DNA from: Candidatus Poribacteria bacterium
GTDB lineage: Bacteria; Poribacteria; WGA-4E; WGA-3G
Assembly (NCBI GenBank): GCA_965197475.1
Contig: CBDANF010000003.1
Location: 896,001 to 960,000, forward strand
DNA length: 64,000 bases
Direction: 5' to 3'
This document shows, one piece after another, positions 20,554 to 61,384 of the stretch (its first letter is position 1; each line of letters starts with the position of its first letter). The notes under the pieces are model-generated. The model saw only the letters and a list, made by a program, of their open reading frames with translations. It was not told where the DNA came from and did not search any database. Both the position numbers and the translations under genes were made by a program.

Positions 20554-20555
20554 AA

Positions 20556-21425: not shown

Positions 21426-21458
21426 CGCGAACGGATTGTACGGATTTACACAGAAACA

Positions 21459-22334: not shown

Positions 22335-22361
22335 CGGATTGTACGGATTTACACAGAGACA

Positions 22362-23324: not shown

Positions 23325-23345
23325 CTATAGATTTATACCACCACA

Positions 23346-24230: not shown

Positions 24231-24260
24231 GAATGGATTGTACGGATTTACACAGAAACA

Positions 24261-26164: not shown

Positions 26165-26191
26165 CGGATTGTACGGATTTACACAGAGACA

Positions 26192-27187: not shown

Positions 27188-27189
27188 AA

Positions 27190-28122: not shown

Positions 28123-28174
28123 TAGTAATGCGGGTTTCCATCGCGAATGGATTGTACGGATTTACACAGAAATA

Positions 28175-29056
28175 TTAGATTTTTACCGCAGCTAACCCCT
28201 CTGAAAAACAAGTAGCGTACCTAAATATCGGTTCAATCATCCACTTCCCAGTTTTGTCAATGTACCCATACTTCCCATTTATTTTGACAGCCGCAAGTCC
28301 TTCAGAAAACATGTCGGCTCTATCAAATTGCGGTTCAATGACGAGTGCCCCAGTTTTGTCTGCATATCCATATTTTCCGTTCACCTTAACGACAACCAAC
28401 CCTTCAGAGAAATAGGGAACATACGCTTCAAATGCTAATTCAAGAACCACCTGACCGGTTTTATCAATAAACACCTGCTTCCCATCTTTTGTTTTAACAT
28501 AAGCGTAGTCCTCGGAGAAGTCCCATGTGTCTTTAAAATGAAGTGGAATTATTAATTTACCATTTTTATCAATATATCCCTGATCACACTCATCGTCTAA
28601 TCCCCAGACACGTGCCAATCCTTCAGAGAAAGAGAACAGGGATTCATAAGGCGGAATGAATGCCCACTCGCCATCGGTGTTAATATAACCAACGGTCGTT
28701 TCGGTTCTTACGAGGGCGAGACCGTCTAAGAAGTTCTCAGCATCTTTGTACGTTGGCGATATTCTCATGGTGCCATCCTTATTGATATAACCGTATTTAT
28801 CATCTACGAAAATAGGAGCTAACCCGTTACCAAATGGATGAGCACACTTATATTGAAGGGGAATGGCAAGATCACCTTGTTTGTTAATAAATCCGTATAC
28901 GCCATCAATCTCCACTGCTGCTAACCCTTCGGTATGACCGTAGCAATAATCAAACTGTGGTGGAATGACGAAACTCCCACTTTTATCAATGTATCCGTAT
29001 TTTGACATTTTCAAAATTAGACTTGTACCAAAGCTAACCCCTCCGAAAAACGCCAA
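28175..29056 (-). CDS. WG repeat protein (copy 4)
   Basis: WG repeats; core nearly identical to 19714..20553. Confidence 0.9.
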   Translation of the reverse strand: MAFFGGVSFGTSLILKMSKYGYIDKSGSFVIPPQFDYCYGHTEGLAAVEIDGVYGFINKQGDLAIPLQYKCAHPFGNGLAPIFVDDKYGYINKDGTMRISPTYKDAENFLDGLALVRTETTVGYINTDGEWAFIPPYESLFSFSEGLARVWGLDDECDQGYIDKNGKLIIPLHFKDTWDFSEDYAYVKTKDGKQVFIDKTGQVVLELAFEAYVPYFSEGLVVVKVNGKYGYADKTGALVIEPQFDRADMFSEGLAAVKINGKYGYIDKTGKWMIEPIFRYATCFSEGLAAVKI

Positions 29057-29892
29057 GCTTCACTAAATCTCGGTTCAATAACCCACTCTCCTGATTTGTC
29101 AAAGTACCCATACTTTCCGTCTACAGCAACTGCCGCAAGTCCTTCAGAAAAATCACCGACTTTATCAAATTTCGGTTCAATGACAAGTGAACCAGTTTTA
29201 TCTGCGTATCCATATTTCCCATCGATTTTAACAGCAACCAATCCTTCAAAAAAGTAGGGACGATACGTTTCAAATGCTAAATCAAGAACCACCTGACCGG
29301 TTTTATCAATAAACACATGCTCCCCATCCTTGGTCTCAACATAGGCGTAACCTTCGGAAAAATTGTAGGTGTTTCTAAAGTGAGTGGGAATCACCTCCGC
29401 TCCCGTAATATCAATATACCCTTCATTGGATTCCTCTCCTTCTACCCAAACTATCGCTAATCCTTCAGAAAATGAGAAACAGCATACATAAGGCGGAATC
29501 AATGCCCATTCGCCATCGGTGTTAATATATCCTTCGGTAGTTTCGGTTATTACATGGGCAAGACCATCGGAGAAGTAAGTAGCATATTTAAACGTCGGCG
29601 GTATCACCACGGTGCCAGCTCTATTGATGTAACCGTATTTGCCATCTATGGAAACAGCGGCTAATCCTTCACTGAAATCATCTGCATATTCAAATTGGAA
29701 GGGAAGTGCAAACCCTCCGTGTTTGTCAATAAACCCGCATTTTCCATCAATCTCTACGGCGGCTACGCCTTCGGTATGATAACCGGGAGTATCAAACTGT
29801 GGAGGAATGATGAACTTTCCGCTTTTATCAATGTAACCGTATTTCGACATTTTCAAGACCTTCTTGATTAGTAATGCGGTTTCCATCGCCAA
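29017..29892 (-). CDS. WG repeat protein (copy 3)
   Basis: WG repeats. Confidence 0.9.
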   Translation of the reverse strand: MAMETALLIKKVLKMSKYGYIDKSGKFIIPPQFDTPGYHTEGVAAVEIDGKCGFIDKHGGFALPFQFEYADDFSEGLAAVSIDGKYGYINRAGTVVIPPTFKYATYFSDGLAHVITETTEGYINTDGEWALIPPYVCCFSFSEGLAIVWVEGEESNEGYIDITGAEVIPTHFRNTYNFSEGYAYVETKDGEHVFIDKTGQVVLDLAFETYRPYFFEGLVAVKIDGKYGYADKTGSLVIEPKFDKVGDFSEGLAAVAVDGKYGYFDKSGEWVIEPRFSEAWRFSEGLALVQV

Positions 29893-29919
29893 CGGATTGT
29901 ACGGATTTACACAGAGACA

Positions 29920-30900
29920 TTAGATTATTACCGAAGCTAACCCCTCTGAAAAAAGTCCGGCTTCCTTGAATCTCGGTTCAATAACCCACTCACCCGACTT
30001 GTCAATGTAACCGGACTTACCATCTACAAAAAGCCCGCCTCGTCTGAATTTCGGATCAAAAACCCATTCACCCGATTTGTCAAAGTAACCATACTTAGCA
30101 TCTACAACAACAGCCGCAAGCCCTTCAGAAAAATGTCCGACATTATCAAATCGCGGTTCAATCACGACGCTCCCGGATTTATCTGCAAATCCGTATTGAT
30201 GATCGATATTAACACCGATCAACCCTTCAGAGAAGTATGGAGGATAAAATATTAACGCGGATTCAAGAACCATCTGACCAGTTTTATCAATACACCCACT
30301 TTTTCCCTCCTTTGTTTTAACATAAGCATAACCTTCGGAGAAATCGGATATGCTTTCAAAGTCGGGTGGAATGACTATTGTCCCCATCCTATCAATATAT
30401 CCCATATCAAACGTATCTTCTTTTTCATTCCAGACACCATGCCGAGCGAGGCCTTCAGAAAAACCGTATAACATGTGATCATCAGTGAATGTTAATGCTT
30501 TTTCACCAGATTTGTCAATATAGTGCTCATGTATAGCACCATCAGTTGCCTTGGTTCTTACAAGGGCAAGACCATCGGAGAAGTAAGTAGCATATTTAAA
30601 CGTCGGCGGTATCACTACAGTGCCGGATCTATTGATGTAACCGTATTTGCCATCTATTGAAACAACGGCAAATCCTTCGCTGAAATCATCTACATATTCA
30701 AATTGGAGGGGAATCACAAAATCACCCCGCTTGTCAATGAAACCGCATTTTCCATCAATCTCTACAGATGCTACGCCTTCGATATGATAACCGGGAGTAT
30801 CAAACTGTGGAGGAATGATGAACTTTCCGCTTTTATCAATGTAACCGTATTTCGACATTTTCAAGACCTTCTTGATTAGTAATGCGGTTTCCATCGCCAA
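29920..30900 (-). CDS. WG repeat protein (copy 2)
   Basis: WG repeats. Confidence 0.9.
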   Translation of the reverse strand: MAMETALLIKKVLKMSKYGYIDKSGKFIIPPQFDTPGYHIEGVASVEIDGKCGFIDKRGDFVIPLQFEYVDDFSEGFAVVSIDGKYGYINRSGTVVIPPTFKYATYFSDGLALVRTKATDGAIHEHYIDKSGEKALTFTDDHMLYGFSEGLARHGVWNEKEDTFDMGYIDRMGTIVIPPDFESISDFSEGYAYVKTKEGKSGCIDKTGQMVLESALIFYPPYFSEGLIGVNIDHQYGFADKSGSVVIEPRFDNVGHFSEGLAAVVVDAKYGYFDKSGEWVFDPKFRRGGLFVDGKSGYIDKSGEWVIEPRFKEAGLFSEGLASVII

Positions 30901-30927
30901 CGGATTGTACGGATTTACACAGAGACA

Positions 30928-31887
30928 TTAGATTATTACCGCAGCTAACCCTTCTGAAAAAGGTTCGGCTTCCTTAAATCTCGGTTCAATAACCCACTCA
31001 CCCGACTTGTCAATGTAACCATACTTACCTTCTACAAAAAACCCGGTTCCCTTGAATCTCGGTTCAATAACCCACTCTCCTGATTTGTCAAAGTACCCAT
31101 ACTTTCCGTCTACAGCAACTGCCGCAAGTCCTTCAGAAAAATCACCGACTTTATCAAATTTCGGTTCAATGACAAGTGAACCAGTTTTATCTGCGTATCC
31201 ATATTTCCCATCGATTTTAACAGCAACCAATCCTTCAAAAAAGTAGGGACGATACGTTTCAAATGCTAAATCAAGAACCACCTGACCGGTTTTATCAATA
31301 AACACATGCTCCCCATCCTTGGTCTCAACATAGGCGTAACCTTCGGAAAAATTGTAGGTGTTTCTAAAGTGAGTGGGAATCACCTCCGCTCCCGTAATAT
31401 CAATATACCCTTCATCGAACTCCTCTCCTTCCAACGAAACTTTCGCCAATCCTTCAGAAAAGGAGTAAATATCTCCATAAGGAGGTATGAGTACCAATTC
31501 GCCTTCGGTGTTAATATACCCTTCGGTAGTTTCGGTTATTACATGGGCAAGACCATCGAAGAAGTAATAAGCATTTTTAAACGTCGGCAGTATCACTACA
31601 GTGCCGGATCTATTGATGTAACCGTATTTGCCATCTATGGAAACAGCGGCTAATCCTTCACTGAAATCCTCTGCATATTCAAATTGGAGGGGAAGTGCAA
31701 ACCCTCCGTGTTTGTCAATAAACCCGCATTTTCCATCAATCTCTACGGCGGCTACGCCTTCGGTATGATAACCGGGAGTATCAAACCGTGGCGGAATAAC
31801 AATTCTCCCACTTTTATCAATATAGCCAAATTTCGACATCTTATGTACCTCTTTTTTAGCAAGCGGGGCGTAGCATCTGTGTCGCAC
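30928..31887 (-). CDS. WG repeat protein (copy 1)
   Basis: WG repeats; AAAGAGG RBS before ATG at about 31839 (MSKFGY). Confidence 0.9.
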   Translation of the reverse strand: MRHRCYAPLAKKEVHKMSKFGYIDKSGRIVIPPRFDTPGYHTEGVAAVEIDGKCGFIDKHGGFALPLQFEYAEDFSEGLAAVSIDGKYGYINRSGTVVILPTFKNAYYFFDGLAHVITETTEGYINTEGELVLIPPYGDIYSFSEGLAKVSLEGEEFDEGYIDITGAEVIPTHFRNTYNFSEGYAYVETKDGEHVFIDKTGQVVLDLAFETYRPYFFEGLVAVKIDGKYGYADKTGSLVIEPKFDKVGDFSEGLAAVAVDGKYGYFDKSGEWVIEPRFKGTGFFVEGKYGYIDKSGEWVIEPRFKEAEPFSEGLAAVII

Positions 31888-31914: not shown

Positions 31915-32872
31915 CTAAGGTGTTAGGATAAGCAACCCACCAACAGGTGCAGCAGGGGTGGGTAATAGCGCAATGCCAATGAGCGTTTTTCCACCTTTGT
32001 AGATCAGATATCCTGCACCAAGTCCCCCAGCAAGAGTCAACAGTCTACTGGGTGAAAACCAACTACCACCACTCGTTCGATTCATCCCTTTTTTAATTTC
32101 CTTTGCTTTTCCCTTAGAACTTCTCGGCAAGTTCTCAATAGTTTTGTCACCTCCTCCAATTTTCCATCCAGGGCTTTCCGCTGTGGGCGGATACACGTTT
32201 ATGTGATTTCCATCTGGGAAGGTAACATCATAATGGGGACCACCATGGCCTGAAGGGTCTTTTTTCCATATTTCTTCGTGTTCACCCTTTGCACCACCCC
32301 CCTTGTGTCTGGCAGGCCCCCGGTCAGGCTCCCTGTACCCTGAGTCTCTTGGTGGTATGCGTGTGAGTTCCACGACTTGTGCGTTATTGCCAGAAACAAC
32401 CTGATTCCCCAAAGCTAACACGTAGAAAGCCCATTCAACATCTCTACTATATGTGATGTTAAACTCATTTGTATCTTCACAGTATGTCACGGACTCAATG
32501 GGAACCGTGAATTCGTCGTAAACTGTCACGGTGTAAGAGTCCGAGTCTGAATCTATCGGCACTGTCGGATCTTCCTGACCATCAACAGGGAAAACCTCTG
32601 CTGTGATCTCGTACGCGTCGCCTATTGCACTACCACTGTTGAATATATATTCAAAATAAGAGGTCGTGTCTGTTCCATTACCGTAGTCTGTGTATGCCAA
32701 CGTTCCAAATCCGGATTCACACGGACTTTTTACATACCAGAAAACAACTCTATAAGGTTGGTTAAATGAAGCTTGACTGTATTGCGTAGTACCTGAGATA
32801 ATTGTGGTTAACCCTCCTGAACTTTGGCCAACGTAATCTACGGTGATCGCCGCATCAACGGCGGCGGAAATA
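31915..32872 (-). pseudogene. 5'-truncated polymorphic-toxin-like protein with Ntox37-like C-terminal domain
   Basis: Frame stays open upstream of the TTG at 32700 up to the IS630 end (..SAAVDAAITVDY..PYRVVFWYVKSPCESGFGTLAYTDYGNG); tip motif IWKKDPSGHGGPHYDVTFPDGNHINVYP then a hydrophobic Gly/Ala tail. Confidence 0.65.
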
Positions 32873-32889: not shown

Positions 32890-33438
32890 TTATATTCCAT
32901 TTGCGACTTTCGTGAAATATTTAAAATTTGTGATTTGAGCAATAGCTGCCTTCGTATACTTTCTCAAGATTTGTGTGATTTTGTCCTGCATTTCCTCTAT
33001 TGACCCCAATGTGTGCTGAAACAATTTGGCTTTGATGTCTTGCCAGAGTCTTTCGATCGGGTTCAACTCTGGACTATAAGGGGGTAGAAAAATCAAGGCG
33101 ATATTGTCAGGAAGTTGTAGCGATTTCGCCTGATGAAAACGACCATTATCAAGCACAAGGACATTTAGCGTCTTTGGAAAAGTCTTTGCTAACTCATCAA
33201 TGCATACTTGGAAACAGACACCATTGAGCCAGGGCATTTCAAGGAAGAAACTTTCTCCTGTTATCGGTTCCACAGCTCCGTATAGATAAAGGCTCTGGTA
33301 AGTGTGATCAACATTGGCAATCGGTTTAACACCGCGTAAGGTGGGATGCCGAGACGACACAGGCAAAAGACCACACCTTGACTCGTCTTGGCAAAAAAGT
33401 CGGACGCTTTGAAAAGAAGATGCCTTCTCCGAAATCAC
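32890..33438 (-). CDS. IS630 transposase, DDE part
   Basis: QDESR, LDNGRFH, LPPYSPELNPIERLW. Confidence 0.93.
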   Translation of the reverse strand: MISEKASSFQSVRLFCQDESRCGLLPVSSRHPTLRGVKPIANVDHTYQSLYLYGAVEPITGESFFLEMPWLNGVCFQVCIDELAKTFPKTLNVLVLDNGRFHQAKSLQLPDNIALIFLPPYSPELNPIERLWQDIKAKLFQHTLGSIEEMQDKITQILRKYTKAAIAQITNFKYFTKVANGI

Positions 33439-33482
33439 CTCCTCAACTTTGGTAGCGAAGTTAGCAACGAACGCATCACACG

Positions 33483-33947
33483 CTACATCGTTTTTTTATG
33501 ACTTTTGCGAGGCACTTTGAGTTTCGCATTCCATTTATACCGAACTAACGCATGAACTGTTTTATAGTGCATTTGGACACCGAAGGTTTCTTCAATATAA
33601 TCTGTTATCTGTTGATAACTGGAAAAACCTTCTGGTTTTTGAAGTTCCGCTCGCAGCAGCTCTTGTTGTTCTTTGGATAACCGAGGGGGACACCCCGGGG
33701 AATAATCACGATCCAAAAGCGCATCAAGTCCTTTAGTCTCATAAGTCACTATCCAGTGTCCAATCGTTTTTCGGCTGACACCTAACCTCTCAGCGACTTG
33801 CTTGCGAGTTATTGCTTGACCACTACGAAATAGGTAAAGGGCTGTCAATCTTTGCTTTTGATAACCTACTGATGTCTTTCTCAACAGCCTTTTCAACTCT
33901 GAAACACTTTCTGTAATCTCTGGAGGCTTTATGTGCATTGGTATCAA
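33483..33947 (-). CDS. IS630 transposase, HTH part
   Basis: HTH, ends in KLKVPRKSHKK; a -1 shift at A7 reads KKNDVACDAFVANF.. into the DDE ORF. Confidence 0.9.
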   Translation of the reverse strand: MIPMHIKPPEITESVSELKRLLRKTSVGYQKQRLTALYLFRSGQAITRKQVAERLGVSRKTIGHWIVTYETKGLDALLDRDYSPGCPPRLSKEQQELLRAELQKPEGFSSYQQITDYIEETFGVQMHYKTVHALVRYKWNAKLKVPRKSHKKTM

Positions 33948-35377: not shown

Positions 35378-36826
35378 TTAGAATATTCCGTCAATCACTT
35401 CACCTTTGACCAACTCACGTGGTTGTTCTAAGTGATTCAGCACGATAGTGTGCGGGTCAATACCGAGCGTATGGTAAATCGTAGCGAGGATATCTCGCGG
35501 ATGCACAGGTTTTTCAAGCGGTGTTGAACCCGTAGCATCAGACTTACCGTAAACCTGACCACCTTTGACACCCGCACCAGCGATTAGACCGGTATAACAA
35601 TAGGGCCAGTGGTCACGTCCATCAGGTGCGTTACCATTACCAGAGGTACTAATACCCATTCGTGGTGAGCGACCAAATTCACCGATAGCAAGCACAAGCG
35701 TTTCCTCTAACATGCCGCGCTGATCTAAATCTTCAAGCAGTGAAGAAACCGCACTATCTAACTTGGGACAGTGTAGGTTTTTCAGTGGGCCGAAGTTCGC
35801 TGCATGCGTATCCCATGCCGTTTCATTCGGGTTGCCGTTTGCAACAGAGGGCCAGTTCACCTGTACGAAACGGGTGCCTGCTTCAACCAGTCGGCGTGCA
35901 AGGAGCGCGCTCTGACCAAATGTATGGCGACCGTATTTGTCACGCATTTCATCAGGTTCCTGCGACAAATCAAACGCATTACGTGCTTTCTGAGACAAAA
36001 TGAGATTATACGCTTTTTCATAATACTCGTTCAGCGCGTAAGAATCAGCCACTTTGTCAATTTCTGGCATATTGGCGTTAATCGTTTCAAGTAGCGTTTT
36101 GCGACGCTGTAACCGAGCAGGCGGAATTTCTGGACGTAGCGTCAAATCATCAAGTTTTATCTCTTTATTGGGGTCCTGGAAAAGAAAATATGGGTCATAA
36201 GCTCTGCCGAGGAAACCCGCATTTCCGCCTTTACCGATGATACCACTCTCCTGCATTGGACGCGGGAGTTGGACAGCTGCTAACATCGGTTCATCTGGCG
36301 GTCTGAACTTAGCGATATGTGCTGCAGCATTTGGATGATCTGCAGGAGACGGTGGGTCAAGTTGTCCCGAAGGTGCAACCTTGTCCGGTGTTTCACCTGT
36401 AACCATCTGATACATCGCAGCGGTGTGATTGAAAAGTCCAGCTGGCGTATAACTTACTGAACGGATAAGACATGCTTTATCCATCTGTTTCGCTAAACGC
36501 GGCATCGTCTCTGACAACTGAATACCGGGAACATTCGTTGGAATAGGATTAAATTCACCACGGATATTAGACGGAGCATCCGGCTTTGGATCCCAGATAT
36601 CAATGTGACTCGGTCCGCCTTGCAAAAAGAGCAGAATGACAGAATTTGCTTTGCCCCAACCGTTTAGAGGCATCGCGGGGTCAACTGTCGTGCTTGCCTT
36701 GGCTTGGAGTGACAATACTTGTGGCAGGCTAATGCCCAGCATCGCCGCGCCACCCACGCGGAGAAATTCCCGACGTGAGAACCCATCACATAATCTTCCG
36801 GGTGCTTGTGGTAACGAAATCATCAA
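35378..36826 (-). CDS. DUF1501 domain protein
   Basis: SRREFL Tat-like motif, LQGGPSHIDIWDPKP, ARRLVEAG, WDTH, GEFGRSP, GRDHW. Confidence 0.95.
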   Translation of the reverse strand: MMISLPQAPGRLCDGFSRREFLRVGGAAMLGISLPQVLSLQAKASTTVDPAMPLNGWGKANSVILLFLQGGPSHIDIWDPKPDAPSNIRGEFNPIPTNVPGIQLSETMPRLAKQMDKACLIRSVSYTPAGLFNHTAAMYQMVTGETPDKVAPSGQLDPPSPADHPNAAAHIAKFRPPDEPMLAAVQLPRPMQESGIIGKGGNAGFLGRAYDPYFLFQDPNKEIKLDDLTLRPEIPPARLQRRKTLLETINANMPEIDKVADSYALNEYYEKAYNLILSQKARNAFDLSQEPDEMRDKYGRHTFGQSALLARRLVEAGTRFVQVNWPSVANGNPNETAWDTHAANFGPLKNLHCPKLDSAVSSLLEDLDQRGMLEETLVLAIGEFGRSPRMGISTSGNGNAPDGRDHWPYCYTGLIAGAGVKGGQVYGKSDATGSTPLEKPVHPRDILATIYHTLGIDPHTIVLNHLEQPRELVKGEVIDGIF

Positions 36827-36934: not shown

Positions 36935-39424
36935 TTAACGGTTAAATAAAAACGCGGGACTATTGATTAATGCCCACAATAAATCTTGCGCGCCTTCCTC
37001 TTTCGATTCAGCTTTTGCAAGATGTTCAACCGCTGTCGTATATTCATTTTCCTCCGGTAACCGAGCAAATGTTGCAAGGTACAACTCTTCAACAAGGACA
37101 CGGTCGTCCTTATTGTCTTTGAGGAGTTTTGCAATTCGTCCATTTGGATCAATAATTGCATTCGCAACTGTCGGACCGTTAATAAGGTTCATTGCGTGTG
37201 CCAGGCTTACCTCCGTTGTCCGTTCACATTCACATGAACTTTCACGTTCTGGACGACCGAACAATTTCAAAAATCCATCATCCTTTACTCTGCTGTCCGG
37301 TAATTGTACAGCACGGAAGTTTTTCGGCACACCCTGAAACTTCGGTTGACTTCCCGTAGCAACACCGATAGCATCTAACAACTGTTCAGCTGTCAAACGT
37401 CGTGCGGTTGCGTGTGAGAAATTAATCGTATCCTCTTTGTTCCACTTGTTGGTCTTGATACTCTGTTGATAGGTGCGAGAACGGGCAAGTGTTTTCATGA
37501 TATGTTTCATGTCAAACCCGCTGTCCACGAAATCTTTCGTCAGCGCATCAAGCAAATCCGGATTACTGGGTGGGTTGCTTGTCCGTATATCATCAACCGG
37601 TTCAATGATACCGCGCCCCATGAAATAACTCCATATACGATTTGCACCTGCTTTTGCGAACATAGGATTCTCAGATGATGTGAGCCATTCAGCAAGAGAT
37701 TCACGTTGATCAGCAGCATCTTTCTGGACTTCGCCAAATGGAACAGATGGATTAACAACAGCTAACGTTCTCGGATGTTTAACCGGACTCGGACTAAAAC
37801 TAGCGTATACGATTTCATCACCCGGTAAACGTCCGTTTTTCAGCTTGACACCTGAGAAAAATGCGCCTAATTCGTAATACTGATTTTGCGTCCATACCTC
37901 AAACGGATGGTCATGACATTTATTACAGGCGAATCGAACGCCAAGGAAAAGTTGCGTCGTATTTTCCACAGCCGCAGTATATTCGCGCGAGACACGGAAA
38001 TAATTTGCTGCAGGATTGGCATAAGTACTGCCAGTAGCAGTAATCAGGTCATGCACAAATTGGTTATAGGGTCGATTTTTTGCAATTGACTCATGTATCC
38101 ATTCTTGGAAAAGCCACATGCCGCGTTCACCGAGGAATTTACGGTTCGATTGCAATAGGTCACCCCATTTATGTGTCCAATGGTCAACATATTCGGGTGT
38201 TTCGACCAGTATATCAATCAATTTTTCTCGCTTTTCCTTGGCAGGTGTTTTATCCGCAAGGAAACTCCGTACCTGTGCAGGATCTGGTGGAAGTCCTGTC
38301 ATATCGAAATAAATCCTACGAACGAACTCTTCATCTGTGCAAAGTTCAGATGGTAGAATCTTCAGTCGCTTCAGTTTGTTATGGACATGCGTATCAATGT
38401 AGTTGTATTCTGGTGTTTTAACCCATTCGTAACCACTCCGATCACCCATAACGATGATGCCGTTTGTGCTATATGCTCCCTCATATCGGGTTAGGATAGC
38501 GGTTTCTCCGCGGCGTTCTGCAGTTACCATACCGTCACCAGTTATTTTCGCAACTTCGTTGACACTACTGGTGAATTTTGCTTCACGGGTAACATCACGG
38601 GTCGTTCCATCTGGATAATGGGCAATTACCAACATTTGTTGTTTCGTCCCCGGCATAGACAATTCAGCGGATTCTGGAAACACCTCTAAGCTCTCAACAC
38701 GTTGGGTAGTTTCTACATCAGAGACAACCCCTTCACTTATCCACTGATGAATGAGATTGTAATCACGCGAATCCGGGACAATCACCTGACCCCCTTTGTG
38801 TGGCACTTCAGATGTTGTTTTGAGCAACATTAAACTCTGTTCGGGGAACGCACGATTAAACCGCCGTCCAGATATATCTTCAATCAGGAGTTCATAGTCA
38901 AAATCTGGATCGTAACCGCGCAGTGAAAGTTTGAAACCGTTTTTGCCTTTTGCAGAACCGTGGCAGGTGCCGCTATTACAACCGGCATGGCTTAGAATGG
39001 GCATCACATCTCGCACAAAACTCACTGGCGGTGCGTCAACGCTTGCAACGTTCACCGGTAATTCTGTGCTGATGCCTTTCACTGTAACCTTAATTGTTGC
39101 AGGACCAACTGAATTCGGAAAGATGTAACCATCTTCAAGCACCTTTACCCCTTCTGAGGTAGGTTTGAGAACTGCCGAAGACGTAACATCAACCCATTTT
39201 CCATCTTTAGTTTGCCCCGAAACAAGCACACGGCGACCATCGCGCGCATGCTCTAACGTCAACGACTCCGGGTGAGTCTTCAACGCTTTAATTTCAGGAA
39301 TGTCTACACTCGGTACAGCTTCCTCCATCTGGCTCCAACTTGAATGTTGAAATACCAAACAGCAGAAAAATACGATAAGGAGTGTAACAACCAAGTTATA
39401 CCTGAGTTTCACATTAACCTCCAA
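36935..39424 (-). CDS. DUF1549/DUF1553 (PSD1) protein with Ig-like (Big_2) domains
   Basis: GCNSGTCHG..KGKNGFKLSL, FLGVRFACNKCHDHPF, NRIW..FMGRGIIEPVDD, FGRPERESSCECER, DLLWALINS..FLFN. Confidence 0.95.
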   Translation of the reverse strand: MEVNVKLRYNLVVTLLIVFFCCLVFQHSSWSQMEEAVPSVDIPEIKALKTHPESLTLEHARDGRRVLVSGQTKDGKWVDVTSSAVLKPTSEGVKVLEDGYIFPNSVGPATIKVTVKGISTELPVNVASVDAPPVSFVRDVMPILSHAGCNSGTCHGSAKGKNGFKLSLRGYDPDFDYELLIEDISGRRFNRAFPEQSLMLLKTTSEVPHKGGQVIVPDSRDYNLIHQWISEGVVSDVETTQRVESLEVFPESAELSMPGTKQQMLVIAHYPDGTTRDVTREAKFTSSVNEVAKITGDGMVTAERRGETAILTRYEGAYSTNGIIVMGDRSGYEWVKTPEYNYIDTHVHNKLKRLKILPSELCTDEEFVRRIYFDMTGLPPDPAQVRSFLADKTPAKEKREKLIDILVETPEYVDHWTHKWGDLLQSNRKFLGERGMWLFQEWIHESIAKNRPYNQFVHDLITATGSTYANPAANYFRVSREYTAAVENTTQLFLGVRFACNKCHDHPFEVWTQNQYYELGAFFSGVKLKNGRLPGDEIVYASFSPSPVKHPRTLAVVNPSVPFGEVQKDAADQRESLAEWLTSSENPMFAKAGANRIWSYFMGRGIIEPVDDIRTSNPPSNPDLLDALTKDFVDSGFDMKHIMKTLARSRTYQQSIKTNKWNKEDTINFSHATARRLTAEQLLDAIGVATGSQPKFQGVPKNFRAVQLPDSRVKDDGFLKLFGRPERESSCECERTTEVSLAHAMNLINGPTVANAIIDPNGRIAKLLKDNKDDRVLVEELYLATFARLPEENEYTTAVEHLAKAESKEEGAQDLLWALINSPAFLFNR

Positions 39425-39492: not shown

Positions 39493-40314
39493 TTACCTCT
39501 GGTTTTTCAAGTTTCCCCACATTATCGGCAACTTGCCGTATGAGGATACATCTAAATATTTCGATTCACTCACTAACCAATCAATAACGTTTTCTGTAAG
39601 TTGCTCTAACTGGTCAATATCTTTATTATTCGCGTGGTAGTTTGGAAGTCGCCAATTCATGTTGAATACCTTGCCTTTTCCTGCTTTCCAATAACCGAAA
39701 GCTGCAATACCATCACCCCAATCGTTCGCTGGGGGACCCTAAGCGTTGGCAAGCGTAATAAAATTCTTCCAAAGTTTGTTGTAATAGTCACCAGTATTCG
39801 GATATCCAGTCGAATTAACCTGAATCCTATCACCAAGTTTCGGTGTGTCTCCATCAATATTCTTTAGACCGTCAACTAATTTGTGGTCAAGTGTCTCTTG
39901 GAGTACGGTAATGCCGACGTTCTGTCCATCGTCTAGTACAGGCGGAAACCCACGCGGTTGAGCATCTTCCAACCCCATCGGTGTAGCATAACGAATAGCC
40001 CATGCTGTCAACAATACTGCACCGTCGCTTTCAGCGTAGTCCAAAAACGCATCAATTTCTGCAGCGGACAATGCACCCGGATCGGTATCTCCTTCGTGCC
40101 ACCACACAACGGCAAACTTTTTGAACGTTGTACTCTTAAGGTCGTTTTTAGCCAATTCTGTCGTCTTATATGTCTCTTTTGCGAAATCCAGTGCAGGCGA
40201 AGTAAACGGTCCGTTATCTCCAAGATAGACAAAACCGACCTCTACTGCAGCATTTCCTATATTTAAACTACATAATACCATTAAAGTCAAGCAAAATACA
40301 AGTTTTCTATACAT
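39493..40314 (-). pseudogene. secreted protein with Poribacteria-type C-terminal tail, interrupted by an in-frame TAG
   Basis: After TAG at 39739..39741 the same frame continues about 81 codons to ..LDVSSYGKLPIMWGNLKNQR*. Confidence 0.75.
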
Positions 40315-40419: not shown

Positions 40420-40779
40420 TTATTTAGACACTATATAAAGCGTAATCACTGCAAGTACAAGACTCGAAATTGTGAGAATCATGCGGTAGTCGTCAACATC
40501 TGATCTGGTGTGCAGTCCTTTATTTTTTGTAGAAGATGTTTCAGGTGGTGAAGGTAGAATAACTCTATTAGACGAGGAACTTGTAGAAACCGTTGTCCGA
40601 ACTTTACGTACAAGCCGCATCTCCATGATGCCGGTATTCGGGTTTTCTACCAACTTCCATTCTTCCACAGTTGTATCTGATGCCATTATTGGAACTTGTT
40701 CCGTAGAAATTGTATGTGTTGTGCCTGAACAACCATAAAGAAATATTAACGCAAGCACGATACCTGTGCAATAACACAC
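40420..40779 (-). CDS. hypothetical small lipoprotein/membrane protein
   Basis: LYGC lipobox-like motif and C-terminal TM helix. Confidence 0.5.
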   Translation of the reverse strand: MCYCTGIVLALIFLYGCSGTTHTISTEQVPIMASDTTVEEWKLVENPNTGIMEMRLVRKVRTTVSTSSSSNRVILPSPPETSSTKNKGLHTRSDVDDYRMILTISSLVLAVITLYIVSK

Positions 40780-40884
40780 TATTAAGGATGTTACCGTGTC
40801 TGATCTTTTTCATTTTGGTACTCCCGTTTCTTAATTATCACACTTTATACAAAATGAGCAACTATTTTTATGAGATAGACTCTA

Positions 40885-42339
40885 TTACATCGGTCCAACG
40901 CGTTCAGGACCTCTGTCCATAGCAAATATTGACGCATCAAAACTTCTTTTTAACAAATCAAATTTAGTATCTTGCTTTTCTGACACATGCCATAGGTTGT
41001 TGAACTCATCCGGGTCATCAACCAAATCGTAGAGTTCTCCCTCTTCGTAACCGTGATATACTACCAATTTATAACGCTTATCCCGATACATCGTTGCGAA
41101 TGTGTGGTCACGCATGTCAAGCGCATTATAATATTCACACCGGACGAAGTCACGATGATGGTTTGCATCTGTTTCACCTCGGAGAATAGGCAATAATGAT
41201 CGTCCGTGCATCTGATCAGGGATAGGTAAACCCGCTAATTCCAACAGTGTCGGTGTTTTGTCAACAAGTTCAACGAGGGCGTTGCTTTCTAAACCGCTTA
41301 CAAAATGCCCTGGCAAGGAGAAAATCAACGGCACCCTGACTAATCCCTCATAAAACCGGCACCCTTTTTGTATAAGTCCATGATCTCCGAGTGTCTCACC
41401 GTGGTCGCTCGTGAAAATGATAACAGTGTTTTCACGTTGCCCTGTTTCATCCAAGACTTCCAGCATCCGACCTAACTGATCGTCAATCAGTTTTATCATT
41501 GCATAATATGCAGCCTTGAGTGTCTTGGCATCCCTTCCACCCACAATCTCAGCTTTAGTTTTAGTGCGCGGTGATCGTGGTAAGATCGGATCCCGTATGT
41601 CTAATTCATCTGGTGTTTGGACTTTCGACTGAAAATCAATTTGACGCAATCGGTGCTGCTGTTCTAAATCACTCTCCCTGAAAAGCGGTTCGGGCATGTC
41701 CGCAGGATTAAACTTTTCCCTATATGATTGTGGCGAATTGAACGGTGGATGCGGGTCATAGATATTAACACTCACAAGCCAAGGTCCGTCCCGTTCCTCG
41801 CGAATGAACTCAATCGTCTTTTCTGCACACCAAGTCGTTTGGTGTAATTCTGGTGGAACGCCCTCCGGATTCCTATTTAACTCACCAAGTGTATACCCTT
41901 TTGAACGAACCCAATCTGCGTAGTCGTGACCTTCCTCCCAGTCATCTCGTGGTGCGTGACTATACTGCCAATATTGATAACCGTCGTTTGCACGTGGTTC
42001 TACTCGGCGAAAAGCACTTGCAAGGTGAAGTTTGCCAATTAAGCCACAATCATAACCGATGTCCGCAAGTATACGCGTTACAAGCGGAAATGTGTCTGGA
42101 AAATAATCGTTCCCGTTACCATTAACATGTGTAGCATTCGGATACATGCCTGTCAAAAAACTCACACGACTCGGAGTGCAAATAGGGCTTTGACAATACG
42201 CATGTGTAAATGCTACGCCTTCTGCAACCAAACTATCAATATTTGGTGTTGACACATGCGGATTGCCTAACGCGCCTATCGTGTCATAACGTTGTTGATC
42301 AGTGCAAATCCATAGGATATTCGGATGTTGAATAGACAT
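40885..42339 (-). CDS. formylglycine-dependent (Cys-type) sulfatase
   Basis: PNILWICTDQQR, CTPSR.SFLTG, GKLH, PHPP, SDHG. Confidence 0.95.
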   Translation of the reverse strand: MSIQHPNILWICTDQQRYDTIGALGNPHVSTPNIDSLVAEGVAFTHAYCQSPICTPSRVSFLTGMYPNATHVNGNGNDYFPDTFPLVTRILADIGYDCGLIGKLHLASAFRRVEPRANDGYQYWQYSHAPRDDWEEGHDYADWVRSKGYTLGELNRNPEGVPPELHQTTWCAEKTIEFIREERDGPWLVSVNIYDPHPPFNSPQSYREKFNPADMPEPLFRESDLEQQHRLRQIDFQSKVQTPDELDIRDPILPRSPRTKTKAEIVGGRDAKTLKAAYYAMIKLIDDQLGRMLEVLDETGQRENTVIIFTSDHGETLGDHGLIQKGCRFYEGLVRVPLIFSLPGHFVSGLESNALVELVDKTPTLLELAGLPIPDQMHGRSLLPILRGETDANHHRDFVRCEYYNALDMRDHTFATMYRDKRYKLVVYHGYEEGELYDLVDDPDEFNNLWHVSEKQDTKFDLLKRSFDASIFAMDRGPERVGPM

Positions 42340-42415
42340 ATATTGTCCTATTTCAGGGCAATCTTTATATCGGGTTTACAAAACCCTCCTACAAGAAAAG
42401 ATAGCGGAACTCACA

Positions 42416-44020
42416 CTATTTGGCAGTCGCGGTAAATCCTGCTGTTTTAATGACTTTTGTAAGTTCATCAACTGTTACTGAGTTTTTCCGCACCTTAATA
42501 ACCGCCTGGTCGGGTAGAGAAACTTCAGCACTGATAACGTTTTGATGTTTTGTAAGTGCATCCTGCACTTTAGCGACACAAGCTCCTCACGTCATACCTG
42601 ACACTGCCAAGGCTACTTCCTCGCTAGCAGCCGTTTTAATTGGCACGGACATGAAAATGTTCAATTGTTTGCCAGAGTTAGCGTCAAATATACGGATTTT
42701 TCCATCAAAACCGCCCGTGGCGAGTTGCAGTTGCGCGCCATCAGGGTGAAAAGCAAGCGCAAACACACTCACAGTATCGCCCTGCATAGATAAAAGCCGT
42801 TTTCCGTTTGCTACGTTATAGATACGTGCTTCACCCGAAGAACCGCCGACTGCAAATTTGCTTCCATCTGCCGAAAAAGCGACTGATTGAATTGAACCCG
42901 ATTGAGGTTCATACGCACGGATAAGGTTGAAGTCTGTGTTGCCGACATCTCTACGGGTTTGACGGAACATTCTGTAAAGCCGAGGAATTCGGTCTTCTCC
43001 AACACTCAAAACCTGGTCTGCATTTGGGTGCCGCGCAATAGCGTTGATTTCTCCGTAGCCTTTGTTGCTTGAGTTAACATCGTCTACAAACGATCCTGTG
43101 TTTACTTCAACTAATTTGAGCGCAGTATCACGACTACAACTGACAAAATGTGTGCCGTCTGTAGAAAAAACAGTCCCGAACACCCAATCACCGTGATTAT
43201 CAAATTTTACAAGTTCCTTCTCGTCCGCAACAGAGATAACGCGTACTGTTTTATCTGAACTTCCAAACGCAACGCGACTGGCATCAGGTGAGAAAGAGAG
43301 TCCGTAGATCGTATCATAAGTGGAACGTATTGCTTTGGTGAGTTTATTTGTAGTGGTATCCCATAGCTGCACCTCGCCAAATTGTGCTGGGGAGCCACCT
43401 GCTACACCCAGTATTTTCCCGTCTTTGGTATAAACGATTGATTGTATCCGCCGCGCTTTTCCTACCAATCGTGCTTTTAGCTCAAAATTCTTTGTGTCAT
43501 ACAACAGAACTTCTCGGACGCCAGACACAGCGAGCATGCTTCCATCGGGTGAGTACGTCATAGCTGAAACAACCGGCGGCACCGTATAACTCGGGTAGTT
43601 TTCACCGTCCATTTCATCTGCTTTCGCGGGCGTATCATCTTTTGCTCCTTCAAGAATCCAACGTTGGATCAATGCTACCTCTTCAGCGGAGAGCGGTTCT
43701 TGGTTCTGCGGCATCGCAGGTGGGTCACCAGAGATAAGTTCAATTATTAAACTCTCATCCGGTTTTCCGGGGATGATTGCTTCTCCTGCCTTCCCACCTT
43801 GCTTGAGTTCAGCAAAAGATGTCACTATCAGATCGCCATTCGGATCGCCGGGGTGATGGCATCCTTGACAACTCCGTTTGAGAATGGGGAAAATCTGTGT
43901 GTGATAACTCACTGGTTCCTCTTTGGCATGGTTATCTGCCGCCACAAACGGACTCCACAGAACAAAACTGAGCAGAAAAATCCTTATATAATTCATAAAC
44001 TTCAATCTTAATATCTTCAT
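42416..44020 (-). CDS. planctomycete cytochrome c + WD40 + HMA fusion, predicted selenoprotein (TGA 42587..42589 = Sec)
   Basis: Signal peptide, CQGCH, WD40 repeats; reading through TGA gives VSGMT-U-GACVAKVQDALTKHQNVISAEVSLPDQAVIKVRKNSVTVDELTKVIKTAGFTATAK* (complete HMA domain), 534 aa. Confidence 0.82.
42548..42586 (-). promoter_or_regulatory. bacterial SECIS-like hairpin
   Basis: mRNA AAGUGCA-GGA-UGCACUU starting 16 nt after UGA, with G first in the apical loop. Confidence 0.65.
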
Positions 44021-44429
44021 GTTTGTTGAAAAACCCTCCCTGTCGTTTCGGCACGTTTTTCAGCCAAGCTACATTACAAATGATATTTTAACATATACTT
44101 TGGGGATAATTATATCACAATTTCACCATACAATTCAAGAAAAATCACTTTTATAATTCAAATCTAAAAATACTTCTACATTTTTCAGAGTTTGCGGCGT
44201 TGATTAACGAAATTGATTGCGTCTCTTACATTCTCATAGCCCTGCGATGCACAACCTAAACACCCAATTAACTCCTCAATTCATGAGTTTTTTCTGTGTA
44301 ACATTTGCAATGGAAGTAACGTAATTTCTTAAACTTGCAATTTTCGAGTATTCACCGCGAAAAGTATTTTTTATTGTCATTCAAATTAAAATTTTCATGG
44401 AATAAGGTATTATAAAAGGAATTGATAGA

Positions 44430-45411
44430 ATGGAAAAACAAGTCTTGAAGTTGAGTTTATGTTTTTTGGGACTGCTGCTTATAGTTACGGGTGGGTGTGA
44501 AAAAGAAAAAACAGAAGACATTACCAAGGTAATACCCGCGACTGAGAAAAAACTTAATGTCGTCGCAACAATTAGCATGATTACCGATATTTTGAATAAT
44601 GTTGGCGGCGATAAAATTGATGTTACCGGAATTATCGGCGAAGGGATTGACCCGCATCTCTATAAACCGACTGCAAGAGATACTAAGCAACTAACGGAAG
44701 CAGATATTATTTTCTACAACGGGTTGAACCTTGAAGTGAGAATTACAGGCACCGTACTTGACAAAATGGCAGATAAAACGAAAGCTGTCGCCGTAACAGA
44801 TAGGATTGATCGTTCACGACTACGGGTAGCGTCTGAATTTCTGGGTGGTTATGACCCGCATGTGTGGCATGATGCATCGCTCTGGATGAATGCGACTGAA
44901 AGGGTGCGAGATACGTTAACTCAAGCTGACCCTAAAAATGCCGAATATTATCATTCTAACGCAAAGAATTACTTGGCAGCATTAGAAAAATTGCATATTG
45001 ACCTGCAAGCCCTCGCAGCACAGATACCTGCTAAGCGTAAGGTTCTTGTCACGACACACGATGCGTTCGGTTACCTCGGAGGTGCTTACGGTTTTCAGGT
45101 GCGCGGACTTTTGGGTATAAACACAGAAGACGAAGTCGGCATCGCCGATGTGAGGGAGCTCGCGGCGTTTATCATTGAACCGTAAAATCCCAACGATGTT
45201 TGTTGACACCTCATCCTCGTCTCGAGGCATTGAGGCTGTTCAAGCTGCTGTTCACGCAAACGGTTTCAATGTCAAAATCGGTGGTGGTCTTTTTGCTGAT
45301 GCAATGGGATCGCCCGGAACGTCTGAAGGGACGTATATCGGCATGATGCGCTACAACATTGATACCATCGTGAACTCGCTTCAAACTGAGTTGGCTTATC
45401 AGGAGCAATGA
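44430..45411 (+). pseudogene. troA: TroA/MntC-like Mn/Zn ABC substrate-binding lipoprotein, frameshifted at about 45180
   Basis: Lipobox VTGGC, DPHLYKP, DPHVW, THDAFGY; second frame KIPTMFVDTS..LFADAMG..TYIGMMRYN. Confidence 0.85.
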
Positions 45412-46088: not shown

Positions 46089-47074
46089 GGCTCATGTAAA
46101 AAGTAAGTGCTATTTTTTCAAAGTTATGTTAGCGTGTTACCTATGGACTTTCCAATACAATCTCTCCTGGATGAAGAAAAAACTCAAGCGTGGGTGTTGG
46201 ATCATTTCCACCTTCAAGGGCTGTGTTGCCCAAAATGCCAAGCGAGCGTGGCGGAGGCACGCAAGTTCCGTCCGACTGAAACAAGTGGTCTACAAGTGTA
46301 TCGCTGCAAACACTGTGAGAGCATCTACAACCTCTATACCGGGACGGTCTTTGCTGGCACGCAGTTTCGTCCCTCACAGGTCGTTCTGCTTTTGCGCGGT
46401 GTCTGTCAAGGTGTTTCAAGTGCACAACTCGGGTGTGAACTGGGTCTAAGTCGTCAAACCGTTCTTTCTATAAGACGTAAACTCCAAACTTCGGCAGAGC
46501 AGATACAACCCGAAGCTGCTTTACCTGATGCTGAAGTCGAAACAGATGAGATGTTTCAAAACGCCGGTGAAAAAGGCGATAAGCACGTTGATGCTTCGGA
46601 TCCGCCGCGTCGGCGTGGCAATAAACGCAGGGGACATGGGACTTATGACAATGATCGTCCGCCTATTGTTGGGACGAAAGGTCGCGAAAGCGGTCTCCTG
46701 AGATTACGTGTTGTGCGGCACACCGATTCTGCGACGCTTTCAACACACGTTCATCAGTGGACGTTGCCGACTTCAACGGTGTATACGGATGGTTGGCGTG
46801 GCTATAACCGTATTCAGCGCGCCCGTGAGATTGTTCTCCATAAGGATGGCGAGTGGGCAAGAGACGCAGACGGTGATGGTCTTTACGAGATCCATACAAG
46901 GACGATTGAAGGTGCCTGGACGACGCTGCGAAACTTCCTTCGTCCCTTTCGTGGCGTTCATAAAAAGTTCCTCGCCGGTTACGTCGCAATCTGTGAGTTC
47001 GTCATGAATCTAAAAGCTGTCAGTGTTGATTTTATAGCAAAACTCGTCAAAAGCACTTACTCTTGACATGAGCG
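46089..47074 (+). mobile_element. IS1595-family IS (986 bp)
   Basis: IRs GGCTCATGTAAAAAGTAAGTGCT and (reverse complement) CGCTCATGTCAAGAGTAAGTGCT; 8-bp TSD ACTTTTTT at 46081..46088 and 47075..47082. Confidence 0.95.
46143..47066 (+). CDS. IS1595-family transposase
   Basis: Zn ribbon CPKC..CKHC, HTH, ETDE..YTDGW..TIEG.W. Confidence 0.92.
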   Translation: MDFPIQSLLDEEKTQAWVLDHFHLQGLCCPKCQASVAEARKFRPTETSGLQVYRCKHCESIYNLYTGTVFAGTQFRPSQVVLLLRGVCQGVSSAQLGCELGLSRQTVLSIRRKLQTSAEQIQPEAALPDAEVETDEMFQNAGEKGDKHVDASDPPRRRGNKRRGHGTYDNDRPPIVGTKGRESGLLRLRVVRHTDSATLSTHVHQWTLPTSTVYTDGWRGYNRIQRAREIVLHKDGEWARDADGDGLYEIHTRTIEGAWTTLRNFLRPFRGVHKKFLAGYVAICEFVMNLKAVSVDFIAKLVKSTYS

Positions 47075-47925: not shown

Positions 47926-48091
47926 TTGTGTCCACTGGGTTTATATGGTATAATATAGATAAGAAAATAGGGGGTTGGTAGCCCCCTAAATGAACACAAA
48001 AAGCGAGTTGCTTTTTGACGGTTCTAATCTTATCTGGTATTATATCAGAAATCCGTCAGAAAAAGCAACTCCTATTTCAAGGAGTTATCTG
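47926..48091 (+). promoter_or_regulatory. transposase promoter and structured leader with overlapping antisense promoter
   Basis: TTGTGT-17-TATAAT (47926..47954); hairpins; anti-SD AACTCC versus SD GGAGTT; conserved in copy B. Confidence 0.65.
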
Positions 48092-48973
48092 ATGGATTTG
48101 TTGAAGGTGATGGAGCGTTTTCCCGATCAAGAGAGTTGTATTTCGCATTTAGAGAAGATTCGGTGGCGAGGTAAACCTGTGTGTCCGCATTGTGAAAGCG
48201 ATCATATAGGAGAACGGACAGAAACAGAAATCGGTCGTATCGGTCGTTGGAACTGCCACGAGTGCCAAGTGAGTTTCAAGGTGACGTGCAGGTCGGTGTT
48301 TCACGGGACAAAGATAGCGTTACAGAAGTGGTTTTTGGCTATTTCGTTGATAACGAATGCGAAGAAAAGTTTGTCAAGTCATCAACTTGCGCGCGATTTA
48401 GACTTGAATCAAAAGACAGCATGGTATATCATGACTCGTATCCGTGCTGAAATGGCAAAGAAAGGTAACGTGCTACTACAAGGCATCATAGAGGCAGATG
48501 AAACTTACATCGGGGGTAAACCTCGTAAGCCTAATAAGAAGGAAGACCACGTGCCTGCCAAGCGTGGACGTGGAACAGAGAAAGACGCTATTATCGGGGC
48601 AGTACAGCGGGGCGGGAAAGTTGTAGCACAACTCGCTAAAGATTTGACAGGACGGACTATTTTAGACTTTATCCGAAGAGTCGTCAAAGTTGAGGATTCG
48701 GAGTTGATGACCGATGAGTATAAGGCGTATCTCGCTATCGGCAAGGAGATGAAACACCATATCATAGATCATCAAACGCAATTTGTTGAGGGTGATGTCC
48801 ACACAAACACAATTGAGGGGTTTTGGAGTCTACTCAAACGAGCTTGGTATGGAAGTCATCACCACTACTGGACTAAATATACGCCCCTGTATGTAGCAGA
48901 GGCGTGCTATAAATACAACTATAGGAGCATTGACAGTATCTTTGATAAGTTTGTTAATGAAAGTATGCGGTGA
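48092..48973 (+). CDS. IS1595-family transposase (copy A)
   Basis: CPHC..CHEC, EADETYIGG, TDEY, HTNTIEGFWS; ATG after AAGGAG matches the start of copy B. Confidence 0.95.
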   Translation: MDLLKVMERFPDQESCISHLEKIRWRGKPVCPHCESDHIGERTETEIGRIGRWNCHECQVSFKVTCRSVFHGTKIALQKWFLAISLITNAKKSLSSHQLARDLDLNQKTAWYIMTRIRAEMAKKGNVLLQGIIEADETYIGGKPRKPNKKEDHVPAKRGRGTEKDAIIGAVQRGGKVVAQLAKDLTGRTILDFIRRVVKVEDSELMTDEYKAYLAIGKEMKHHIIDHQTQFVEGDVHTNTIEGFWSLLKRAWYGSHHHYWTKYTPLYVAEACYKYNYRSIDSIFDKFVNESMR

Positions 48974-61380: not shown

Positions 61381-61384
61381 ATTA

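Follow-up and report, generated by a model that had tools for sequence, protein, structure and literature searches.

P-type ATPases, MerP-like proteins and the UxxU family are catalogued as having selenocysteine (Sec) in their metal-binding CxxC motifs (accessible parts of PMC13188914 and PMC2398784). The table of a 2026 review lists a 'Putative mercuric transport protein' among the selenoproteins (PMC13188914), MerP and ATPase selenoproteins are listed in the GOS study (PMC2398784), and the same selenoprotein families appear in the accessible part of a paper on an Olavius symbiont (PMC1976440). Judging by its UxxC motif, the Sec of the catalogued ATPases presumably lies in an HMA domain. Here we describe a gene in which an apparent TGA stop falls on the first ligand position of such a domain. 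It lies on the minus strand of a 64,000-nucleotide stretch of Candidatus Poribacteria bacterium DNA (assembly GCA_965197475.1, contig CBDANF010000003.1, positions 896,001 to 960,000), hereafter the window. With high confidence, the gene at 44020..42416 can be taken to encode one 534-residue secreted protein rather than a 477-residue one. It is very likely, on comparative sequence grounds, that the apparent stop is read as Sec and that translation continues into a metal-binding domain. With the known UxxC selenoproteins, as far as the accessible sources describe them, the predicted product shares Sec in place of a Cys ligand of CxxC, soft-metal handling and the logic of a UGA followed by a hairpin. 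Unlike the known ATPase and standalone Sec proteins, it would carry its HMA domain as a C-terminal appendage of a secreted heme c and WD40 protein, with UxxC and not UxxU as its motif.

The gene and its parts are located as follows, in coordinates of the window.

42416..44020, minus strand: full coding sequence of the putative selenoprotein, 534 codons plus the terminal TAG, with a single in-frame UGA (Sec478)
43937..44020, minus strand: signal-peptide-like segment, approximately residues 1–28, with a basic start, a hydrophobic core and ...FVAAD at its end; helix 2–22 in the AlphaFold2 model
43709..43870, minus strand: PSCyt1 (Planctomycete cytochrome C) domain, residues 51–104; Pfam PF07635, 38.7 bits, cut-off 22
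42650..43591, minus strand: seven-bladed WD40 beta-propeller, approximately residues 144–457; Pfam WD40 and propeller families, strands in the AlphaFold2 model mostly with a predicted local distance difference test score (pLDDT) of 80–94
42422..42625, minus strand: HMA domain, residues 466–533, beta-alpha-beta-beta-alpha-beta; Pfam PF00403, AlphaFold2 and PDB sequence matches
42587..42589, minus strand: UGA codon 478, putatively read as Sec, at the first ligand position of GMT-U-xx-C; alignment column invariant
42578..42580, minus strand: Cys481, second ligand of U-x-x-C; invariant in alignment A2 and in the 81-sequence codon alignment
42554..42570, minus strand: SECIS-like (selenocysteine insertion sequence) hairpin AAGUGCA-GGA-UGCACUU, overlapping codons K484–L489; seven Watson–Crick pairs, loop 42561-42563
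42416..42418, minus strand: true terminator TAG, read from the frame

Under translation table 11, the open reading frame (ORF) 44020..42587 encodes 477 amino acids with the C-terminus ...ALAVSGMT and stops at the TGA 42589-42587, which is the VSGMT end described in an earlier reading made from the sequence alone. When TGA is translated as U, the frame stays open for 534 codons, 56 residues beyond U478, up to the TAG at 42418-42416. The sequence is then ...SGMT-U478-G-A-C481-VAKVQDALTKHQNVISAEVSLPDQAVIKVRKNSVTVDELTKVIKTAGFTATAK, with 53 residues after C481 and the C-terminus ...TAGFTATAK; the extension of 56 residues ending in AGF and a few further letters, proposed in the same reading, is thus recovered. 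The sequence-only reading had also placed the TGA exactly on the first Cys of a GMTCxxC motif and had regarded the extension as completing a CopZ/MerP-like domain, and both points agree with the profile, structural and alignment data. The Pfam HMA profile (PF00403) matches residues 471–529 at 38.9 bits, where the gathering score is 24.8 (E 1.2e-9, profile positions 2–61 of 62), and the match starts seven residues ahead of the TGA. In an AlphaFold2 model built with 25 read-through orthologues as input (mean pLDDT 73.7), the HMA domain 466–533 has a pLDDT of approximately 85–93. The TGA divides the coding sequence of this domain: the first strand, 466–474, and G-M-T come ahead of the codon, and x-x-C and the remainder of the domain follow it. 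Since both the HMA match and the first beta-strand start before the TGA, the 477-residue product would end inside a domain. A PDB sequence search with the last 71 residues matched copper-ATPase metal-binding domains, MerP (1afi, E 2.2e-7) and CopZ, and U478 was aligned with the first Cys of GMTCxxC in the solved HMA domains. The profile score, the modelled fold and the GMxCxxC-type loop (GMT-U-GA-C) all point to an HMA domain.

Orthologues were taken from a profile scan of genome contigs, in which the best 80 of 236 relatives were kept, with one genome per species; 77 of these loci are titled Poribacteria and three 'uncultured bacterium'. They contain 81 copies of the gene, since one locus (L076) has two. 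In this locus, the GMT-TGA-GAC region and the tail occur twice, at approximately 6470 and 7484, about 1 kb apart and with few base differences; either a local duplication or an artefact of assembly could account for this. TGA occupies the column in 81/81 copies, whereas TGT, TGC, TAA and TAG are never found there. The surrounding motif reads GMT-TGA-x-x-C in 79 loci and GMM-TGA-T-V-C in the remaining one (L080). The Cys481 codon has an invariant TG, with T (49) or C (32) as its third base in the 81 aligned sequences. The true terminator is variable (TAG in 57 copies, TAA in 23, TGA in one), the extension is 56 codons long in 80 of the 81 copies and 57 in the other, and beyond the terminator the frame decays, with a mean of 2.3 stops within the next 60 codons. 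The sequence-only reading had named a simple nonsense mutation as the way in which it might fail, to be recognised by Cys in all orthologues and by the lack of a conserved hairpin; the column never holds Cys, and the hairpin is conserved.

The ratio of non-synonymous to synonymous change (dN/dS; Nei–Gojobori, 600 random pairs among the window and 79 copies, with L080 and the second L076 copy left out) is 0.138 over the extension (codons 479–534), at a proportion of synonymous differences (pS) of 0.57; for codons 38–477, the values are 0.070 and 0.68. Therefore, the tail is translated and is under purifying selection. For the hairpin codons, the ratio is not informative. A conserved UGA followed by a frame with protein-level selection, and the position of this UGA at the Cys of homologous domains, are two features by which a selenoprotein gene would be recognised, and at the sequence level both are found here. 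The best 120 proteins in a collection of 5.8 billion are 446–494 amino acids long and 73–91% identical to the product, and all 120 end at G-M-T, as is expected of an unrecognised selenoprotein. These 120 database copies of the family are accordingly truncated in the middle of a domain, so that catalogues of Poribacteria miss both a selenoprotein and a metal-binding domain.

The hairpin is 17 nt long, begins 16 nt past the A of the UGA and has the loop GGA (fold of 42600-42520). Its constraint was examined in a codon alignment of the last 497 codons of 81 sequences (the window, 79 loci and the second L076 copy, with L080 left out). The 301 columns with a conserved, degenerate amino acid have a mean third-position entropy of 1.17 bits, and only five of them are at or below 0.1 bits, namely the U column, K484, V485, Q486 and A488. 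The lowest five-column entropy window of the gene is 484–489 (0.13 bits), the synonymous pS of the six hairpin codons is 0.053 versus 0.63–0.68 elsewhere, and the wobble positions flanking the hairpin vary freely (0.8–1.6 bits). The stem GUGCA/UGCAC shows little or no variation, and neither G of the loop ever changes. At the third loop base, the middle position of codon 487, all four nucleotides occur (A 59, G 12, C 9, T 1), and these substitutions turn Asp into Gly, Ala or Val. Frozen synonymous sites together with a free non-synonymous loop base thus indicate an RNA element overlaid on the coding sequence. The pattern fits the layout of bacterial SECIS elements. In the SECIS of the Escherichia coli fdhF type, as in the Poribacteria hairpin, the element lies within the coding sequence at a fixed short distance 3' of the UGA and has a conserved G in the apical loop. 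Compared with it, the Poribacteria stem is shorter, the loop has three nucleotides (five if the closing A–U pair opens, as in L080), and no bulged U is evident. The proposal of a 7-bp hairpin with a GGA loop 16 nt after the UGA in the general bacterial SECIS layout is thus borne out by the fold and by the frozen sites. A stem-loop of this kind 3' of the UGA, with a G in the apical loop, is what a SECIS would look like; its binding to SelB is putative. The frozen-synonymous-site signature over the hairpin offers a clean example for SECIS detection without covariation.

The L080 locus (11426-11460) differs from the others in this region. In no orthologue but this one is the UGA preceded by GMM in place of GMT, and among the hairpins seen only that of L080 has U replaced by C at the loop-closing pair, a change by which the loop would open to 5 nt; AAG is also found for AAA in its lower stem.

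A global reassignment of TGA was considered and rejected. The code of the window is standard, because TGA ends 9 of the 34 Pfam-supported ORFs. A search for other in-frame TGAs near Cys, Ser or Thr in the window gave 16 loose contexts, and only the codon described here has a long ORF on both sides and a domain that spans it, the others not having been scanned with Pfam. As for the capacity of the lineage to insert Sec, Poribacteria are one of nine phyla for which Sec-containing group 4 [NiFeSe] hydrogenases are listed (2026; accessible text of PMC13582414), and Slaby et al. (2017) reported that SelA and SelB are enriched in sponge-symbiont bins and co-occur in most of them (PMC5649159, in the parts available). 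Table S4 of the latter paper gives SelA 2, SelB 1 and SelD 1 for Ca_Poribacteria_WGA3G, which is the 36th genome column as matched by hand count. One of the loci with a TGA orthologue (L058) is a contig of the WGA-3G genome.

Several observations weigh against Sec decoding or against the hairpin as its signal. ARAGORN detected no tRNAs, hence no tRNA-Sec, in the 64-kb window and the 80 loci, and neither SelA, SelB nor SelD was found in a Pfam scan of 41 of the 60 window ORFs of at least 120 amino acids. A Cys-form orthologue was not found among the 80 loci, in a word-index search or among the 150 best cluster representatives of the family search described below; the word-index search, made with residues 455–534 for full-length Cys forms, gave one match, an 880-amino-acid P-type ATPase-like protein. 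Such an absence of Cys forms is unusual for bacterial selenoproteins, and the orthologous group appears to be Sec-only within the searches made. The minimum free energy of the 81 nt surrounding the hairpin is unremarkable versus shuffles (z -0.32). A chance control covered all 2612 TGA trinucleotides on both strands of the window. The hairpin sought had to be perfect, with a stem of 7 bp or more, a loop starting 16–37 nt downstream and a G within its first two positions; 21 TGAs (0.8%) have one, and two of these 21 are the target hairpin itself. The geometry is thus rare by chance, which speaks for the hairpin. Because of this chance rate and the ordinary energy of the 81 nt, the strength of the signal comes from the orthologue comparison and not from the single sequence. 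Compensatory covariation is absent from the stem in the 81 sequences, because the stem does not vary, so that the structure is deduced from the frozen synonymous sites, which could in principle reflect another constraint at the nucleic-acid level. The 3-nt loop is at the small end of the bacterial SECIS model. Scanning 42300-44100 against Rfam with an E limit of 10 gave only three chance-level matches to snoRNA and riboswitch models and none to a SECIS family; to our knowledge, Rfam has no general bacterial SECIS model. The Sec-HMA tail scores only 38.9 bits against its best NCBIfam match, NF041115 (UxxU_metal_bind), where the cut-off is 95. Lastly, a selenolate–thiolate metal or redox function, even in its general form, has domain identity and synteny as its only basis, and we consider the chances for and against it evenly divided.

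The alternative that fares best is that the UGA is read through without Sec or mostly terminates translation. The main product would then be a 477-residue heme-propeller protein, and the hairpin would stimulate near-cognate insertion of Trp, Cys or Arg to give a minor isoform with the HMA domain. The lack of Sec machinery among the scanned window ORFs and of its tRNA in the window and the 80 loci is compatible with this, as are the shortness of the hairpin, its lack of covariation and the earlier idea of two isoforms depending on selenium. However, the TGA is present in 81/81 copies exactly on the metal-ligand Cys, termination there would leave a product cut off within a domain, beyond beta-strand 1, and SelA, SelB, SelD and further Sec proteins are reported from the lineage (accessible parts of PMC13582414 and PMC5649159). 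Besides these points, the loop keeps the GG. Such a GG is a trait of SelB-binding loops. We regard this alternative as improbable.

Separate synthesis of two products is less probable still and would be surprising. In this case, the 477-residue protein would end at the TGA, the tail would be made from the GTG at 42568, and the frozen nucleotides would be an initiation region. The ORF listing does include a 50-codon GTG-start ORF (42416..42568) in the same frame downstream of the TGA, and an AGGAG-like string overlaps the TGA in the window, but this string is not conserved among the orthologues, and the codon after the TGA varies (GGG, GGA, CCA, TCG and others). Residues 479–484 (xxCV.K), which lie upstream of the GTG, are conserved as protein with free wobble, and a 50-residue fragment would be devoid of beta-strand 1 and of both ligands of the HMA loop.

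A nonsense mutation from an ancestral TGT or TGC, with the HMA tail as a decaying relic, is hardly credible. Decayed genes and many insertion sequence (IS) elements do occur in the window, as exemplified by the frameshifted ZnuA gene at approximately 45175-45185. However, the TGA is common to 80/80 species-level genomes with no Cys orthologue among them, the 56-codon tail is open in all at a dN/dS of 0.14 and the frame decays only past the true stop, and the loci are not near-identical copies (pS approximately 0.6–0.7). A sequencing or assembly error hiding TGT or TGC has no specific support and can practically be dismissed, given the same TGA in 80 independent assemblies, including long-read complete chromosomes, and the GMT end of 120/120 best database proteins.

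Under the preferred reading, in which UGA478 encodes Sec, the 17-nt hairpin (GUGCA/UGCAC plus two A–U pairs, loop GGN) would act as a bacterial SECIS 16 nt past the codon. With the ribosome positioned at UGA478, it would bind SelB loaded with GTP and Sec-tRNA(Sec), leading to the insertion of Sec; we infer this SelB-dependent insertion by analogy with established bacterial Sec decoding. The product would consist, in order, of a signal peptide, a PSCyt1 domain with a c-type heme bound through CxxCH, a seven-bladed WD40 propeller and the C-terminal HMA domain. The signal-like N-terminus and the periplasmic assembly of c-type hemes suggest export and a periplasmic location. The heme-binding motif C51-Q-G-C54-H55 is at 43856-43870, and alignments A1 and A2 show no variation at C51, C54 or H55. 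With a profile match above the gathering score and the CxxCH motif, the segment is assigned to PSCyt1 c-type heme domains, and heme attachment is predicted; in the AlphaFold2 model this segment has low confidence and is poorly modelled. Many WD40 and beta-propeller families of Pfam match across approximately residues 126–465, and a Foldseek search of the PDB with the whole model found seven-bladed WD40 propellers with a template modelling score of up to 0.92 by target length. All these were generic propellers that provided no functional lead.

Comparison with 1.84 billion cluster representatives using phmmer revealed many PSCyt1-WD40 proteins of approximately 450–510 amino acids with 37–51% identity, which end shortly past the last blade. 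Neither a G[ML]xCxxC motif nor a terminal GM-x occurs in any of the 150 best representatives. Several long representatives match approximately residues 12–477 with their N-terminal part, and all three of them that were scanned continue into PSCyt2 (DUF1549) and PSD1 (DUF1553); NCBIfam gave no families for seven PSCyt1-WD40 homologues. PSCyt and DUF1501 domains are very abundant in Planctomycetes and related bacteria. With the PSCyt1...PSCyt2-PSD1 proteins of the planctomycete type, which are paired with DUF1501 proteins, the Poribacteria protein shares the PSCyt1-WD40 module, being 40–50% identical over approximately residues 12–477. In the three long representatives scanned, PSCyt1, PSCyt2 and PSD1 are in one chain, whereas in Poribacteria the module is a separate gene with the putative Sec-HMA tail. 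Within the searches made, this tail is, on sequence evidence, a Poribacteria-specific addition to a widespread heme-propeller module.

The HMA domain resembles MerP (1afi), CopZ (1cpz) and the copper-ATPase domains (7si3, 7xuk) in its fold and in having the GMTCxxC loop where helix 1 begins. It shares with MerP a location outside the cytoplasm, which is predicted for the Poribacteria protein; it differs from MerP and CopZ in having Sec as the putative first ligand and in being fused to a large scaffold. The protein has an HMA domain and yet stands outside the named families, because its scores are below the cut-offs of NF041115, MerP and CopZ. Assignment to MerP (TIGR02052) was rejected at 36.2 versus 92.55, and assignment to CopZ at 36.2 versus 91 (NF033795) and 35.4 versus 95 (NF033794). 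As for NF041115, the score is below the cut-off, the second ligand is an invariant Cys and not Sec, and the domain is fused to a 465-residue scaffold. In the accessible text of the review PMC13188914, the terms WD40, propeller, PF00403, PF07635, PF00400, sponge and Poribacteria are absent. A family combining heme c, WD40 and Sec-HMA was not found described in the literature, the supplements of PMC13188914 and PMC13582414 lying outside the search. The earlier statement that the architecture was not recognised as described can be kept for the architecture and the lineage, neither of which was found in print; it does not extend to Sec in the UxxC motif of an HMA domain, which was already known. 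The selenoprotein family and its architecture are new, the recoding mechanism is ordinary, and no new principle is involved. As a Sec-only family, it adds to the selenoproteome of an uncultivated sponge-symbiont phylum whose use of selenium is barely described.

Regarding function, selenium would take the place of the first thiolate ligand in the G-M-T-U-x-x-C loop, and the U-x-x-C loop would work outside the cytoplasm, as that of MerP does. The Sec–Cys pair may bind a soft metal or metalloid, of the Cu(I) or Hg(II) kind, or may cycle as a selenylsulfide. The propeller would position this site near the c-type heme, with the PSCyt2/PSD1 protein, the DUF1501 protein and the sulfatase encoded nearby as possible partners. 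The gene would equip the PSCyt1/PSCyt2/PSD1-DUF1501 module, whose function is unknown according to Pfam, with a site of recognisable soft-metal or redox type and thereby provides a concrete hypothesis. A bolder proposal, which we consider unlikely, is that the Sec-HMA tail is the working end of PSCyt-DUF1501 systems in Poribacteria, that is, an obligately selenium-dependent periplasmic site, lacking a Cys form everywhere, at which electrons from the adjacent heme reduce or hand over a soft metal, a metalloid or a selenylsulfide, serving the presumably co-transcribed sulfatase and the sulfatase-like DUF1501 enzyme. If it were true, the PSCyt1/PSCyt2/PSD1-DUF1501 gene pairs would gain their first experimentally approachable function, and the selenium supply of the sponge host would be tied to glycan or sulfate-ester metabolism of the symbiont.

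The following neighbouring genes, transcribed in the same direction, form a conserved cluster with the gene; the counts refer to loci of the 80, some of which end early at contig ends.

40885..42339, minus strand: sulfatase, Pfam PF00884, 76 nt downstream of the putative selenoprotein gene; 70/80 loci
39739..40314, minus strand: conserved hypothetical protein of 191 amino acids with no Pfam match above the cut-off; 71/80 loci
36935..39424, minus strand: PSCyt2 (DUF1549)/PSD1 (DUF1553) protein, identified by Pfam; 70/80 loci
35378..36826, minus strand: DUF1501 protein, the last conserved member of the cluster, Pfam PF07394, E 2.4e-104; 67/80 loci

The order from the putative selenoprotein gene through the sulfatase, the hypothetical protein and the PSCyt2/PSD1 protein to DUF1501 is kept, each member being found in 67–71 of the 80 loci. 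This conserved cluster and the fusions with PSCyt2/PSD1 elsewhere support the link to the DUF1501/DUF1549 module suggested from the sequence alone, and by synteny and fusions the gene can be assigned to the PSCyt1/PSCyt2/PSD1-DUF1501 module. For the 191-residue protein and the N-terminal 341 residues of the PSCyt2/PSD1 protein, a Pfam search at E up to 0.1 gave only sub-threshold matches. A promoter and terminator scan of 40500-44500 gave the same counts as shuffled sequences. No mer or cop genes were seen nearby in the Pfam scan of the window ORFs.

A ZnuA-type metal-binding lipoprotein gene is located at 44430-45411 on the plus strand and is broken into 44430-45185 and 45175-45411, two ORFs that overlap and differ in frame. 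Since the matching parts share one frame in the L013 locus, the gene in the window is frameshifted, either as a pseudogene or by a sequencing error. ZnuA was rejected as a functional neighbour, being a divergent upstream gene that adjoins the orthologue in only 11–12 of the 80 loci. Synteny with other Poribacteria breaks upstream of the putative selenoprotein gene, near IS elements. IS transposase genes are found at 32890-33947, 46107-47066, 47990-48973 and 58494-59375; one is an IS630-like DDE_3 gene accompanied by an HTH ORF, and three belong to the IS1595 family, one of them seemingly partial.

Some other regions of the window can be noted. A tandem array of 13 paralogous genes of approximately 280–330 amino acids is located at 19714-31887 on the minus strand, with best-match identities of 71–97% among themselves. 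The two members that were scanned consist of WG_beta_rep repeats (PF14903, E down to 1e-89), and most members share the start ...KMSKYGYIDKSG; the size of the array suggests recent gene amplification. The ORF 31915-32700 adjoins the array as a 14th gene and has no similarity to the other members. A respiratory-type cluster at 2178-15573 on the minus strand encodes a Rieske protein, a split cytochrome b (N- and C-terminal genes), a 1063-amino-acid multi-heme cytochrome c, a protein distantly matching Cyt_bd_oxida_I and several cytochromes c, among them one with an EB_dh (ethylbenzene dehydrogenase-like) heme domain. At 60598-62428 on the minus strand, two neighbouring N6/N4 DNA methylase genes overlap by approximately 115 nt and have a GC content of 0.38–0.39 versus approximately 0.43 elsewhere; this pair may be a remnant of a mobile restriction-modification system.

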